64,000 nucleotides of DNA from Escherichia coli (GTDB lineage: Bacteria; Pseudomonadota; Gammaproteobacteria; Enterobacterales; Enterobacteriaceae): the NCBI RefSeq assembly GCF_046105845.1, contig NZ_CP151004.1. One strand, written 5' to 3'. This document shows positions 9,825 through 34,337 of this stretch, in pieces. Position numbers and translations under genes: made by a program. The notes beneath the pieces were generated by a model. It saw only the letters and a program-made list of their open reading frames with translations. It was not told the DNA's origin and did not search any database. Numbering within the stretch: the stretch's first letter is position 1; each line of letters starts with the position of its first letter.

Positions 9825-10130
9825 TTACCTGACGTTGTATTCTTTTATGTTAACACCCTTGATACTGTATATACCTGTCCGCTTAATTCGCTTGCCCTTT
9901 TTATTCGTAATAGTTGCTGTAAGTGTACTGCAGCGAATGGAATGACGTTCATCAATCACCAGCCGAATTGCTTCTGAAGCATCTTCCACCTCTAGAAGGT
10001 CGTGAGTCTTATTTAAGCCGAATGGAACAAGGTGGAAGGCCGTTTTTCCAGATGATTTTCTGGTTATTTTTACTGGATACAACACATCACCACTTTTATG
10101 GATTAATTCAAGCTGTTCAATGTAAATCAT
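9825..10130 (-). CDS. Hypothetical protein, 101 aa, in AT-rich segment
   Basis: ORF with AGGAA Shine-Dalgarno 8 nt upstream of ATG; about 40% GC by eye; no recognised family. Confidence 0.4.
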   Translation of the reverse strand: MIYIEQLELIHKSGDVLYPVKITRKSSGKTAFHLVPFGLNKTHDLLEVEDASEAIRLVIDERHSIRCSTLTATITNKKGKRIKRTGIYSIKGVNIKEYNVR

Positions 10131-10217
10131 GGCAACTTTCCTTCGTTTATCTGCATGAATATATAAACCGAAAATAGGAGATGCAATACAAAAGCTGTGG
10201 AAATATCAAATAGCCTC

Positions 10218-10574
10218 TCAATTTGGCAGACAGCGTCTGCCAAATCTTTGCCGATGGGAATTCTGCAGAATTTCAACATGTTGATAAAAAAGGTAAAAAA
10301 GCTTCATTTGGCGTAAGTTTTTTGCAGAGACCCCACGTTTATACCGTCGACTTAAATCCTGCGATAACCGATCAATCAGCTGTGCAGCATAAGCCGCTCT
10401 TGCCTCGCCGCCTTGTTCAAATTCGACAATTCGTCGGCCAATTTCCCAGTATGTGGCGGTCATTAACGCGTTAACACTACGTACCGTTTCCGTCCGGGCG
10501 CTATCGACCAGGTGAATAATACCGTCGTGGATTTGCTGGTAGCCTGTTGAGGTTCTCTCTGAGAGCGATTCCAT
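10218..10574 (-). pseudogene. N-terminal fragment of DUF1016/YhcG-like (PDDEXK nuclease family) protein, truncated
   Basis: 118-aa ORF with TYWEIGRRIVEFEQ...NLRQMKLFYLFY resembling the N-terminal domain of DUF1016 proteins; full-length members about 340-375 aa; C-terminal nuclease domain absent. Confidence 0.5.
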
Positions 10575-10727: not shown

Positions 10728-10758
10728 TCAAAAAAGGCCGGAGCGGGCGTATCCGGCC
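10728..10758 (-). terminator. Intrinsic terminator ending the five-gene operon
   Basis: Minus strand reads GGCCGGA-TACGCCCGC-TCCGGCC followed by T-run, 8 nt after the VWA gene stop. Confidence 0.8.
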
Positions 10759-10765
10759 AGAATTT

Positions 10766-11935
10766 TCAGGCGGTTTCTCTTGCTGTCACTACGCCATTTT
10801 GCGCAGCCCACAGATTCACATCTTCCTTACGAATGGCGGCGGCCATCATGCCGGGGAATAAATCTGGGGTACAGGCAAAGGAGGGAATACCCATGGCGGC
10901 GAGTTTTCCTGCCAGTGACCGGTCGTAAAACGGCGCACCTTCATCGCTTAAGGCCAGCAGGGTAACCACCTGTACGCCGGACTGAATCAACTCACTGGCG
11001 CGTTGCAACAGATTGCGTTCCACCCCGCCTTCGTAGAGGTCGGAAATCAGCACCAGAATGGTATTGCGCGGATCGCGAATCAAAGACTGGCAGTAGCCCA
11101 CCGCGCGGTTGATGTCGGTGCCGCCACCCAGCTGTACGCCAAACAGCAGCTCTACCGGATCGTCGAGCTTCTCTGTCATATCAACGACTGCGGTGTCGAA
11201 AACCACCAGATGCGTTTTTACCGCCGGGAGCGATGCCATTACTGCGCCAAAAATACTGGAATAGACCACCGAGGAGGCCATCGACCCACTCTGGTCGATA
11301 CATAAAATGATCTCCTTTTGCGTGCGTTGAGACTTGCGCCCGTAGCCGATCAGCGTTTCAGGAACAATACTTTTATACTCTTCCTGCCAGTGGCGCAGGT
11401 TGGCGCGAATGGTGCGCTGCCAGTCAATTTCCGCGTGGCGCGGGCGACGATTACGTACCGCACGATTAAGAGCGCCGCTTACCGCGCTACGCATTGGCTC
11501 TTCAAGCTGTTTCATCAATTGCTCGACAACTTTACGCACCACAAGCCTGGCGGTTTCTTTGGTTTTGGCCGGAATTACGCCATTCAGCGACATCAGCGTG
11601 GAGACCAGATGAACATCAGGCTGGACGTTTGCCAGCATCTCTGGCTCCAGCAGCATACTGTGCAAATTAAGACGTTCAAAGGCGTCTTTTTGCATCACCT
11701 GAACCACAGAAGAAGGGAAATACTGGCGAATATCACCCAGCCAGCGAGCGACTTTGGGTGACGATCCACCCGTGCCGCCGCGTAATCCATGTTTACCGTC
11801 TGGCTGATAGAGCGCCGCCAGCGCGGCATCAATCGCGGACTCTCTGGCATCCAGCGCCACGTTACAGGCATTGTCGGCATCTTCTCCAAGGATCAGACGC
11901 CAGCGGCGCAGCCGTTCCATTTCGTTACTCGACAT
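10766..11935 (-). CDS. VWA-domain protein with MIDAS motif (CoxE-like)
   Basis: 389 aa; DxSxS motif in ILCIDQSGSMASS and downstream VLISDLYEGG; N-terminal RWRLILGE typical of CoxE-type VWA proteins; AGGGA SD upstream; 11-nt overlap with upstream gene. Confidence 0.8.
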   Translation of the reverse strand: MSSNEMERLRRWRLILGEDADNACNVALDARESAIDAALAALYQPDGKHGLRGGTGGSSPKVARWLGDIRQYFPSSVVQVMQKDAFERLNLHSMLLEPEMLANVQPDVHLVSTLMSLNGVIPAKTKETARLVVRKVVEQLMKQLEEPMRSAVSGALNRAVRNRRPRHAEIDWQRTIRANLRHWQEEYKSIVPETLIGYGRKSQRTQKEIILCIDQSGSMASSVVYSSIFGAVMASLPAVKTHLVVFDTAVVDMTEKLDDPVELLFGVQLGGGTDINRAVGYCQSLIRDPRNTILVLISDLYEGGVERNLLQRASELIQSGVQVVTLLALSDEGAPFYDRSLAGKLAAMGIPSFACTPDLFPGMMAAAIRKEDVNLWAAQNGVVTARETA

Positions 11936-22800: not shown

Positions 22801-24423
22801 AAATTGCTGGCGGAAGTAATCGTAAATAATGCGCGGCTGACTGGAGAGCACGGCGAATGGGGTGTCGTCGCCCATCGAACCGACCGCTTCCTGACCGTTT
22901 TCGCCCAGTACGCGAATTACGGAGTCCAGCTCTTCCGCGCTGTAGTTAAACTGTTTCTGGTAGCTGGCAAGTGTGTCGTCGTCCAGTTCGCGGCTACCTA
23001 CTTCTTCATCGGGCAGATCTTCAAACGGTACCAGTCGGCGGACGTTTTTCTCCATCCACTCTTTATATGGATGGCGGCTTTTCAGATCGTCATCGGTTTC
23101 TGCCGAGTGCAGAATACGCCCACTGCGGGTGTCGATAACCATCAGTTCGCCTGGCCCGACGCGGCCTTTTTCGACCACTTCGTCAGGCTGGTAATCCCAG
23201 ATACCGACTTCAGAGGCGCAGGTGATGAGCTTATCTTTGGTGATGACGTAGCGCGCCGGACGCAGACCGTTACGGTCGAGGTTACAGGCAGCGAAGCGAC
23301 CATCGGACATCACGATGCCCGCCGGACCATCCCACGGCTCCATATGCATGGAGTTAAAGTCAAAGAAGGCACGCAGTTCCGGGTCCATATCCGGGTTGTT
23401 CTGCCAGGCGGGTGGTACTAACAGACGCATGGCGCGGATGATATCCATCCCGCCTGCCAGCAGCAGTTCCAGCATGTTATCCATCGAACTGGAGTCAGAA
23501 CCGGTTTCGTTGACGAACGGCGCGGCGTCGTGCAGGTCAGGGATCAGCGGCGTCTGGAATTTATAGGTACGTGCGCGCGCCCATTGGCGGTTACCGGTGA
23601 TGGTGTTGATTTCACCGTTATGCGCCAGGTAGCGGAACGGCTGCGCCAGCGGCCAGCGCGGTACGGTGTTAGTGGAAAAGCGCTGGTGAAACAGGCAGAT
23701 GGCCGATTCCAGACGCAGGTCCGCGAGGTCCAGGTAGAAGCGCGGCAGATCCGCCGGCATACACAGACCTTTATAGATGTTCACCAGATTCGACAGGCTA
23801 CAGACGTAGAAGTCTTTGTCGGCTTCGAGACGCTTTTCAATGCGGCGGCGGGCGATAAACAGACGGCGCTCCATATCGCGCGGACGCCAGCCTGCCGGGG
23901 CGTTCACAAAAATTTGCTCAATGCGTGGCAGAGAGGAGAGGGCGATTTCACCCAGCACGCCTTCGTTAGTGGGGACATCACGCCAGCCCACAATCGACAA
24001 CGTTTCGCGTTGCAGCTCTTCTTCAACGATGTGGCGTGCGGCAGCAGCGAGTTCAGGATCTTTATTCAGGAATAGCATCCCGACGGCGTAGTTTTTTGCT
24101 AAACGCCAGCCGCGCTCCTGCGCAACGATGCGAAAAAAGCGATCCGGTTTTTGTAACAGCAAGCCGCAACCGTCACCGGTTTTACCATCGGCGAGAATCG
24201 CGCCACGGTGCTGCATGCGGGCCAGTGCGTGTATTGCAGTACGCACTACCTTGTGGCTAGGTTCGCCTTCTATGTGGGCGATCAGGCCGAAACCACAGTT
24301 ATCCCTCTCAAGGGATTTATCGTACAACATATCGTGAACCTCCCCCAGGCTCTGCGGGAACCCCACTTCCGAACCGCTGCGCACGGGCACAGAAAGAGCG
24401 TGGCGACGGGGGTTGCGTGTCAT
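19870..24423 (-). CDS. gltB: Glutamate synthase large subunit
   Basis: Track ORF 1522 aa; start at [12 protein letters not shown] gives 1517 aa; N-terminal propeptide before Ntn Cys in ERDNCGFGL; 12 nt upstream of gltD. Confidence 0.93.
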
Positions 24424-24439
24424 ACGCGCGCCTCGCATT

Positions 24440-32903: not shown

Positions 32904-34337
32904 TCAAACGAGCTGTTTACGCTGGTTTGACGGCGGAATGGATAAAGACTCTCGGTACTTCGCAACAGTGCGGCGTGCCACCATGATACCTTGTTCCGAC
33001 AGCAAAGAGGTTAACTTGCTGTCGCTCAACGGCTTCGCTGGGTTTTCCGCCGCGATTAATTTCTTCACCAGTGCACGAATCGCCGTGGAGGAGGCTTCGC
33101 CGCCGCCCTCGGTATTGACGTGACTGGAAAAGAAATACTTCAGTTCAAAAATGCCTCGTGGACTATGCAGGTATTTTTGCGTGGTCACGCGAGATATCGT
33201 CGATTCATGCATTTCGACAGCCTGGGCGATATCGGCCAGTACCATCGGTTTCATATATTCTTCGCCTTGCTCAAAGAAGGCTTGCTGCTGTTCAACGATA
33301 CAGCGACTCACGCGCAGTAGCGTATCGTTACGGCTTTCCAGACTCTTGATCAACCATTTGGCATCCTGCAGATTGCTGCGGATAAACTGGCTGTCACCAT
33401 CGTTGCGCGCGTTATTGCACATCGAGGCGTAGTGCTGGTTGATTTGCAGACGCGGAATGCTGTCACTGTTGAGTTCTACCGTCCAGTGACCGTTATGCTT
33501 ACGCACCAGCACATCTGGAATGACATACTCAGGTTCGCCAGTCTGGATCGACTGCCCGGGGCGCGGATCGAGCGACTGGATCAGATTGACGGCTTCTTTC
33601 AGCACATCTTCTTTCAGACGCGTGACGCGCATTAAAGTGCGGAAGTCGTGATTGGCTAACAGATCGAGATGATCGCTAATAATCAGTCTGGCCTCTTCCA
33701 GCCACGGCGTGGTCTTATCGAATTGGGAGAGTTGGATCAGCAGACAGTCACGCAGATCTTTTGCCGCCACACCGACCGGATCAAACCGTTGGATCCGCTT
33801 AAGGACGGCTTCAACTTCGTCGATGTCGATCTCTTCATCGCCCATACTTTCGAGAATATCTTCCAGCGGGACAGTCAGATAACCGGTGTCATCAACGGCA
33901 TCGACGATAGAGGTAGCAATAGCGCGGTCAGTGTCAGAAAACGGTGTCAACTCGACCTGCCACATCAGGTAATCCTGCAAGGTCTGCGTCGTTTCGCCCT
34001 GATAGACCGGCAGCTCGTCGTCAATGTAGTCACCGCTGGTGCCGGATGGTGTACCAGCGGTGTAAATGGTGTCCCAACTGGCATCGAGCGGCAGCTCTTC
34101 CGGCATCTCTTTTTGTTCGAGCGCGTCGGCGGTGTCCAGCGTTTCACTGTCTTGCGTTTCGCGGGTGTCGATTTCTTCATGAGTGTCGATTTGCTCAAGC
34201 AGCGGATTACTCTCCAGCGCCTGCTGTAGCTCCTGCTGAAGTTCCAGCGTCGACAACTGCAACAGACGAATTGCCTGTTGGAGCTGTGGCGTCATCGCCA
34301 GTTGTTGGCTAAGCCTGAGTTGCAAACCTTGCTTCAT
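32904..34337 (-). CDS. rpoN: RNA polymerase sigma-54 factor
   Basis: 477-aa ORF with Gln-rich N-terminus and RpoN box ([10 protein letters not shown]). Confidence 0.95.

Follow-up and report, generated by a model that had tools for sequence, protein, structure and literature searches.

What does a protein with a von Willebrand factor A (VWA) domain do at the end of a five-gene operon that only a small minority of Escherichia coli genomes carry? The gene that raises this question lies in a 64,000-nucleotide stretch of E. coli DNA (contig NZ_CP151004.1 of assembly GCF_046105845.1), and it is this whole stretch that we call the window in what follows. A first-pass annotation had described the gene product as a CoxE-like VWA protein with an intact MIDAS (metal ion-dependent adhesion site), had placed its gene last in the operon and had suggested that, as is common for VWA proteins partnered with MoxR ATPases, it acts as a substrate adaptor. 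The answer to which our analysis leads is the following. Judged by its sequence, the product is a real VWA protein with an intact MIDAS, far beyond what could be ascribed to chance, and the occupancy of this site by metal is predicted. What is more, the protein probably acts as the MIDAS-bearing subunit, or adaptor, of a five-protein MoxR machine, cytoplasmic and self-contained, that belongs to the YehL subfamily, likely with the DUF5682 protein encoded next to it as partner or client. The gene itself is of an ordinary kind that had been annotated by domain before, namely as a "VWA domain-containing protein" in RefSeq, where all five genes of the cassette already bear domain-based names.

The first part of this answer is carried by the domain match and by the conservation of the site. 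In a Pfam search, the protein matches VWA_CoxE (PF05762) with an E-value of 2.7e-52 and 177.9 bits, the gathering cutoff being 26.4, and the match joins residues 149-359 to profile positions 6-217 out of 222; a second match is to VWA_2 (PF13519, E 4.9e-07). The library that was searched for relatives, clustered at 50% identity, contains 2531 of them, including 637 with E-values of 1e-30 or lower, and the alignment used here comprises 94 full-length homologues that are 33-86% identical to the query, YehP of E. coli K-12 among them. Residues D214, S216, S218 and D299 of the MIDAS are each present in all 94 of these sequences, as is G271, while T273 is present in 93. Thus, both the CoxE-type VWA domain and the intact MIDAS of the first-pass annotation hold, the site being complete and essentially invariant in this set. 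The annotation had also specified a DxSxS motif in the form DQSGSM together with acidic MIDAS residues downstream, and here a correction is due: the DQSGSM is as described, but only D299 is acidic among the downstream residues, the other one being Thr273.

The structural model agrees with this picture. Namely, the AlphaFold2 model of the protein, calculated from the 94-homologue alignment (mean predicted local distance difference test score, pLDDT, of 92.7; predicted template modelling score of 0.86), consists of a helical N-terminal domain (residues 1-158) and a classical alpha/beta VWA domain, in which strands and helices alternate from residue 207 to 380. Strand 207-214 has the DxSxS motif at its C-terminal end, and strand 292-298 is immediately followed by D299, which gives the canonical MIDAS topology. 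When this model was compared with the PDB using Foldseek, the top matches were all VWA or MIDAS proteins, i.e. ANTXR2, BatB, the MIDAS of Rea1/MDN1, NorD of the NorQD complex, Rpn10 and Ro60, with E-values between 1e-5 and 1e-4; a search of the PDB with the sequence of the protein found nothing. The N-terminal domain, which gave no significant match when scanned against Pfam by itself, keeps the motifs RWRLILG, LxxLY and WLxDIRxxFP and closes with a long helix (residues 123-158), and in the full-length alignment this domain is common to the window protein and YehP. In the segment that precedes strand beta1 (approximately residues 160-206), T175, N179 and L180 are nearly invariant among the 94 homologues, and the model places short beta elements at 183-190. 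By analogy with the NorD structure (PMC9976466), this segment may correspond to the "finger" of NorD.

How far the label "CoxE-like" can be carried is a separate matter, and we would retain it at the level of the Pfam domain only. CoxD and CoxE take part in the assembly of the Mo-Cu cluster of CO dehydrogenase, and it is CoxE that gives the VWA_CoxE family its name. The window protein shares with CoxE the Pfam VWA subfamily and the pairing with a MoxR-class ATPase, but it differs from it both in its N-terminal domain and in its operon partners. An orthologue of CoxE was ruled out, because the window and all the homologous loci examined lack coxD and the coxMSL structural genes, and the closest named relative is YehP.

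The organization of the operon bears directly on the remaining claims. On the minus strand, the order of the genes is SWIM, DUF5691, AAA_5/MoxR ATPase, DUF5682 and VWA (Table 1). ATGA overlaps lie on both sides of the DUF5691 gene, a gap of 17 nt separates the ATPase gene from the DUF5682 gene, and the DUF5682 gene stops 11 nt inside the VWA open reading frame, which makes this a five-gene operon with translational coupling; the start codons of the DUF5691 and ATPase genes were chosen after the RefSeq annotation of near-identical E. coli copies. Past the VWA stop codon there is a terminator-like hairpin with a 7-bp G+C-rich stem and a folding energy of -13.2 kcal/mol, a value that is not significant taken alone (z-score -1.47). 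The consensus scanner missed this hairpin because its loop is 9 nt long. Given five minus-strand genes that overlap or lie no more than 17 nt apart, and a hairpin past the stop codon of the fifth, the placement of the VWA gene as the last of the operon is correct. None of the five proteins contains a hydrophobic 19-residue stretch scoring above approximately 1.6, as would be looked for in a membrane or secreted location. NCBIfam holds no family model for four of the five and gives only sub-threshold matches of the ATPase to MadB and GvpN, while the PDB sequence search returned nothing for the DUF5682, DUF5691 or SWIM proteins.

Table 1. Positions in the window of the cassette genes, of the domains and MIDAS residues discussed in the text, and of the flanking regulatory elements
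Feature	Position	Strand	Details or basis
VWA protein gene, YehP paralogue	10766..11935	-	389 aa, 42.8 kDa, ATG start; closes the operon
N-terminal all-helical domain of the VWA protein, residues 1-158	11462..11935	-	AlphaFold2 secondary structure and conservation map
VWA_CoxE domain, residues 149-359	10859..11491	-	Pfam envelope
MIDAS motif D214-Q-S216-G-S218	11282..11296	-	Translation; DQSGSM spans 11279-11296
MIDAS Thr273, GGGT loop	11117..11119	-	Translation and alignment
MIDAS Asp299, in LISD	11039..11041	-	Translation, alignment and AlphaFold2
SWIM zinc-finger protein gene	16884..18206	-	440 aa; first gene of the operon; Pfam SWIM E 6.6e-07, residues 59-82
DUF5691 protein gene	15283..16887	-	534 aa; Pfam DUF5691 E 4e-121
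AAA_5/MoxR-family ATPase gene, YehL paralogue	14192..15286	-	364 aa; Pfam AAA_5 E 1.2e-38
DUF5682 protein gene, YehM paralogue	11925..14174	-	749 aa; Pfam DUF5682 E 7e-267
DUF5682 N-terminal alpha/beta domain, approximately residues 1-260, TIKI/TraB/ChaN/erythromycin-esterase-like	13395..14174	-	
Terminator-like hairpin, GGCCGGA-N9-UCCGGCC followed by UUUUUU	10730..10758	-	Starts 8 nt past the VWA stop; consensus-level evidence
Island-specific intergenic region, gltD to SWIM gene	18207..18438	-	Hairpin after the gltD stop, presumed operon promoter, LexA-box core

To which known genes is this cassette related? Aligned with K-12 YehP, the VWA protein shows 37% identity (E 2e-80, residues 9-365 on YehP 13-373) over a stretch that takes in its helical N-terminal domain as well as the MIDAS; for the ATPase and YehL the identity is 41%, and for the DUF5682 protein and YehM it is 27% (E 1e-41). 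Outside the zinc finger, the SWIM protein has no significant match to YehQ, and the DUF5691 protein has none to YehQ either. YehL is listed as one of seven MoxR subfamilies in the Snider and Houry classification (as cited in PMC3893208). Like yehLMPQ, the cassette includes a SWIM protein and keeps the order of the AAA, DUF5682 and VWA genes. Unlike in yehLMPQ, its SWIM gene comes first and not last and encodes 440 rather than 614 residues, no YehQ-like SWIM gene lies downstream of its VWA gene, and an extra DUF5691 gene is present where loci such as those of K-12 and Streptomyces have an upstream DUF4132 gene. Since the SWIM gene stands first, without similarity to YehQ past the zinc finger, the arrangement is a variant one, which we call type A, and the cassette is, by these comparisons, a rare second, paralogous copy of the yehLMPQ system of E. 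coli in the type A architecture. Namely, of 5426 complete E. coli genomes, 5209 (96%) have yehLMPQ, which is therefore near-core, whereas the cassette is an accessory island that we find in only 33 of these genomes (0.6%), with a DNA identity of approximately 97.5% and always between gltD and yhcG/nanQ. The homology with cassette-free E. coli genomes stops exactly at the stop codon of gltD. Horizontal transfer inferred from base composition was considered and rejected: at 57.7% the G+C content of the cassette is close to that of the adjacent core genes gltBD (56.7%), and so it is no evidence of a foreign origin, although the coarse profile (10766-24438) had suggested a G+C-rich island.

Outside E. 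coli, the family falls into two conserved architectures that together span at least five phyla, type A (SWIM, DUF5691, AAA, DUF5682, VWA) and type B (DUF4132, AAA, DUF5682, VWA, long SWIM). The type A order recurs, with unrelated flanks, in Thiobaca (Gammaproteobacteria), Niveibacterium (Betaproteobacteria), Bilophila (a sulfate-reducer group) and Deinococcus, and there is a variant of it in Hymenobacter (Bacteroidota), where the leading gene encodes a 1009-aa DUF5691 protein. The ATPase and DUF5682 genes of Thiobaca trueperi are separated by three small genes, of which one is for a BrnA-type antitoxin (L004:6379-7518). Type B is represented by Streptomyces, with the order DUF4132, AAA, DUF5682, VWA and then a gene for a 714-aa protein, and it is mirrored in K-12, where yehI (DUF4132) lies upstream of yehLMPQ. 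Judged by the Streptomyces arrangement, yehI is probably a part of the yehLMPQ system. Among plasmids, 49 records of the collection contain the family, and most of these are large replicons, not mobilisable, from Streptomyces and Rhizobium. Carriage by phages was considered and rejected. Namely, one of the two matches in the phage database is host DNA flanking the VT1-Sakai prophage, and the other (MT835988.1, "UNVERIFIED: Bacteriophage sp.", 14.2 kb) contains no phage genes and looks like a misclassified bacterial contig, on which AAA_5, DUF5682 and VWA genes are followed by genes for a polysaccharide deacetylase, MgsA/RarA, DUF5717, DUF5716 and TPR proteins.

The proteins of the cassette have not diverged equally. 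Between E. coli and Niveibacterium, the identity is 79% for the ATPase and 78% for the VWA protein, and it falls to 59% for DUF5682, 45% for the SWIM protein and 37% for DUF5691, so that, as far as sequence tells, a conserved motor and adaptor are joined with more variable outer components in one operon. The nearest solved relatives of the ATPase by sequence in the PDB are the AAA modules of Midasin (E 1e-15) and NorQ. Both of these work with MIDAS/VWA partners, and therefore the adaptor reading of the VWA protein fits the best-studied precedents; the suggestion of the first-pass annotation is supported in this sense, the AAA_5 ATPase being encoded two genes upstream in the same operon and the pair being in line with NorQ-NorD by analogy.

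The NorQ-NorD pair (PDB 9qhd/9qhe/9qhg) is the best mechanistic template. In it, a finger of the VWA domain enters the AAA ring's pore, the target is held through surface carboxylates, and NorD with a mutated MIDAS continues to bind NorQ while failing to activate the target (PMC9976466, PMC13036017). As in the cassette, an AAA_5 MoxR ATPase is combined with a protein that consists of an N-terminal domain and a C-terminal VWA domain with an intact MIDAS, and the cassette ATPase matches NorQ by sequence, while the VWA model matches NorD by fold. That said, no nor genes are found nearby, the cassette operon encodes three more proteins, and the likeness of the VWA protein to NorD is undetectable in sequence and confined to the fold (E approximately 1e-4, TM-score approximately 0.33-0.5). 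Another known system to compare is Rea1/Midasin, whose AAA modules are the best solved relatives of the ATPase and whose MIDAS domain is among the matches of the VWA model. The MIDAS of Rea1 takes hold of an acidic residue in a partner protein, and the MIDAS of the cassette protein may, by analogy, do the same. However, Rea1 is one giant polypeptide of eukaryotes with pre-ribosomes as its substrate, whereas the cassette encodes separate bacterial proteins and no client with a UBL domain.

From the same precedents, one could argue for a dedicated maturation chaperone in the style of CoxD-CoxE, NorQ-NorD or CbbQ-CbbO, which would insert a metal or a cofactor into, or reactivate, one particular enzyme encoded elsewhere, with the MIDAS bound to surface carboxylates of this enzyme. 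All well-studied bacterial MoxR-VWA pairs work in this way (PMC9976466, PMC3893208), and the VWA domain studied here is of the CoxE Pfam type. What is more, the ATPase and the VWA protein are approximately 80% identical across proteobacterial classes, as expected if their client were highly conserved, and a neighbour of the K-12 paralogue was historically named "molybdate metabolism regulator". Against this stands the genomic context: no candidate client enzyme is conserved beside the cassette in any of the loci looked at, whose flanks include gltD/yhcG, gyrB/EamA, a glycosyltransferase, MFS/GGDEF and plasmid genes; three more large proteins (SWIM, DUF5691 or DUF4132, and DUF5682) always accompany the pair, unlike in the dedicated systems; and an accessory island is involved that few E. 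coli genomes carry. We consider a chaperone of this type distinctly unlikely.

If the cassette contains its own client, which of its proteins is it? Natural fusions provide the most direct indication. DUF5682 and VWA are found as one polypeptide in two proteins, P0238 (1342 aa) and P0249 (1227 aa), the latter within an AAA / fusion / SWIM operon, and in the cassette the two reading frames overlap. Because of these fusions and this overlap, DUF5682 is most likely the direct partner of the VWA protein, as far as can be judged from sequence; a fusion of VWA with SWIM is also found (P0244). The AlphaFold2 model of DUF5682 (pLDDT 84) has an N-terminal alpha/beta domain of approximately 260 residues and a long helical-repeat region. 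Across 40 members, down to 25% identity to the query, the invariant residues are R12, H13, H14, E37, D100, R186, E187, G210 and H213. In an hhalign comparison with YbaP of the TraB family, HLFGIRH (ending in H13) falls on HLIGSIH (H41) and LLVE (E37) followed by G falls on LIVE (E67) followed by A, at a non-significant E-value of 0.087, and VVCGAWH (H213) of DUF5682 can be matched by eye with VAVGALH (H252) of YbaP. The spacings between these motifs are in agreement, being 24 and 176 residues in DUF5682 and 26 and 185 in YbaP. In its modelled fold and motifs, then, the N-terminal domain of DUF5682 resembles the TIKI alpha/beta fold, a resemblance that falls short of proven homology.

With these elements in place, the mechanism that we regard as probable can be outlined, and in it we infer every interaction, as well as the direction of regulation, from what is observed, i.e. 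the domains, the integrity of the MIDAS, the operon structure, the fusions and the conservation. If NorQ-NorD, CbbQ-CbbO and Rea1 are taken as guides, the VWA domain would dock on a hexameric ring of AAA_5 subunits, probably by way of the conserved stretch ahead of strand beta1, the MIDAS of the domain, loaded with Mg2+, would grip an acidic side chain of the client, and ATP-driven movements, relayed through the VWA domain, would remodel this client. The client or partner would most likely be the adjacent DUF5682 protein, or something that DUF5682 holds. With a catalytic-type His/Glu/His set in its N-terminal domain and a HEAT-like scaffold in its C-terminal half, DUF5682 would be a hydrolase that the ATPase-VWA pair gates or assembles, and the faster-evolving SWIM and DUF5691 proteins would supply the recognition of a target or a signal. 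Candidates for the cellular role are a stress or DNA-damage response, conflict, and quality control.

Several points weigh against this scheme. First, the hydrolytic competence of the ATPase is uncertain, because its motifs are unusual: in six sequences, the P-loop is invariantly GxPGTAKS, with Ala where Gly usually precedes Lys, Walker B has EE for DE, and STAEA stands where MoxR proteins usually have the sensor-2 Arg; ATAN at sensor 1 and KRRF are conserved as well. Second, the link of DUF5682 to TIKI is kept at the level of fold and motif, because the comparisons that could have raised it were not significant. Namely, hhalign stayed at the E-value given above whether YbaP alone or a 13-sequence profile was used, PF01963 was never matched in Pfam scans of the 40 DUF5682 members, and whole-chain Foldseek with DUF5682 returned nothing significant, only helical-repeat noise. 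Third, literature searches found no functional study on DUF5682, DUF5691 or yehLMPQ. In particular, for yehL, yehM, yehP and yehQ they gave only classification statements and the paper on the bioinformatic FSscan screen, which at some length discusses K-12 yehP (L003:12968-14104) as a candidate site of +1 ribosomal frameshifting (PMC2790909), and a search that joined MoxR, VWA, anti-phage and SWIM gave nothing on a YehLMPQ-type system. Fourth, there are two more distant homologues that match the VWA protein at full length, N-terminal domain included (36-45% identity), and that have no adjoining ATPase gene; for one of them, no MoxR, DUF5682 or SWIM gene lies within 10 kb (L008:10001-11176), and for the other, none lies on its 7-kb contig (L009:552-1739). 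Therefore, the coupling to MoxR is not universal in the wider family.

One could take these last homologues as a sign that the VWA protein dispenses with the ATPase and binds its ligands alone, in a metal-dependent manner, or suppose, in a related vein, that what its MIDAS touches is the ATPase rather than a client. However, in all loci of the cassette family that were examined, the VWA, DUF5682 and ATPase genes are found together, and the MIDAS mutants of NorD mentioned above, by keeping their binding to NorQ (PMC9976466), indicate that the MIDAS points to the binding of a client and not of the motor. Either variant therefore appears to us highly improbable.

A different reading, which accepts the same molecular parts, is that of a conflict or defence system, a regulated module aimed at invaders or set off by stress, in which SWIM and DUF5691 would sense a signal, the MoxR-VWA pair would set the threshold at which the module switches, and the effector, a protease or an esterase, would be the TIKI-like domain of DUF5682. 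Its logic is that of the MoxR-vWA ternary conflict systems (Kaur et al. 2020, PMC7159879), which likewise combine a MoxR-vWA core with additional large proteins. The GxxxTAKS variant of the P-loop, noted for the bpMoxR and FtsH ternary systems (PMC7159879), is common to both, and the matches to Pfam bpMoxR are weak to moderate, being sub-threshold for the window ATPase and over the threshold in one homologue (the ATPase of MT835988.1, 31.8 versus 27 bits). That said, Pfam shows no VMAP, iSTAND, FtsH or beta-propeller component in the cassette, the effector-associated domains of PMC7159879 are not found in it, and that paper mentions neither SWIM nor YehL.

The distribution of the cassette also speaks to this reading, and it does so in both directions. 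The cassette is patchy in E. coli and confined there to one variable site, it is portable, its copies in several phyla and on accessory replicons having unrelated flanks, its Thiobaca copy has the BrnA antitoxin gene between the ATPase and DUF5682 genes, and its putative sensor proteins evolve faster than the motor, all of which would suit a role in conflict. However, the paralogous yehLMPQ is near-core, which is unusual for defence, and the identity of ATPase and VWA across classes is unusually high for defence genes. What is more, the cassette includes no effector of the nuclease, pore-forming or NADase type, phage carriage is lacking, and the G+C content does not set the island apart from gltBD. 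Finally, none of the five proteins matches any of the 5027 PADLOC models (PADLOC-DB v2) significantly, the similarity of the ATPase to IetA being only marginal (E 0.0015 and 0.0033) and the other four proteins having no hits.

The possible connection to the SOS response has to be weighed here as well. A LexA-box core of the form CTGT-N8-ACAG, CTGTTTTCCGTAACAG, lies at 18273-18288 in the island-specific DNA, 67 nt before the ATG of the SWIM gene, and its spacer is G+C-rich. In the whole window, such sites number two where 0.59 would be expected; the other one, CTGTTCAACGATACAG, is at 33288-33303. At the K-12 locus, CTGGATAAAATTACAG is found 10 nt upstream of yehF (L003:1450-1465), and molR (yehH) is among the genes with a known SOS box (PMC6590174); molR is also activated by BglJ-RcsB (PMC3950696). 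For the conflict reading, the core upstream of the operon and the listing of the paralogous K-12 locus as an SOS gene are favourable, but no LexA box was found upstream of the Niveibacterium and Thiobaca cassettes, so the site is not kept there. SOS control of the cassette is thus a possible lead suggested by sequence, and the conflict or defence reading as a whole is, in our judgement, rather unlikely.

The surroundings of the cassette deserve a brief description. The cassette is preceded upstream, on the same strand, by gltB and gltD and followed downstream by what is left of yhcG and by the nan operon. The yhcG gene, which encodes a DUF1016/PDDEXK nuclease, is cut down to a 118-aa N-terminal part at 10218-10574 (window 9825-10574, minus strand), and beside it, at 9825-10130, there is an orphan 101-aa open reading frame with no Pfam match; in strain N96, yhcG is intact at the same position. 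A gene with a PDDEXK nuclease domain (L013:10168-11220; L002:5279-6406) immediately adjoins the VWA gene both in E. coli, where yhcG is native to the site, and on a Hymenobacter plasmid, which is probably a coincidence.

What, finally, does the finding mean? Taken alone, an intact VWA protein at the end of an operon is routine, and its value is that of an entry point to the MoxR systems of the YehL subfamily, which have no reported function though K-12 itself has one of them. To these systems, the present analysis adds the two architectures, the coupling and fusion of VWA with DUF5682/YehM, the hydrolase-like N-terminal domain of DUF5682 with its invariant His/Glu/His, and a motor pair that is far more conserved than the putative sensors. 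Together, these make up a testable model in a genetically tractable organism. In its broadest form, which we put forward as a tentative proposal with the odds against it, cassettes of the YehLMPQ type, i.e. the K-12 locus and the type A island, would be a widespread unrecognised machine, in which MoxR and a MIDAS-bearing VWA protein gate a TIKI/TraB-like hydrolase (DUF5682/YehM) on a signal read by SWIM and DUF5691 or DUF4132 proteins, possibly in an SOS response or in a response to invaders. The interest of the VWA gene would rise if such a MoxR/VWA-gated, TIKI-like hydrolase were confirmed for the yehLMPQ family and, if the proposal is true, it would provide the first function for four y-genes of E. 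coli.

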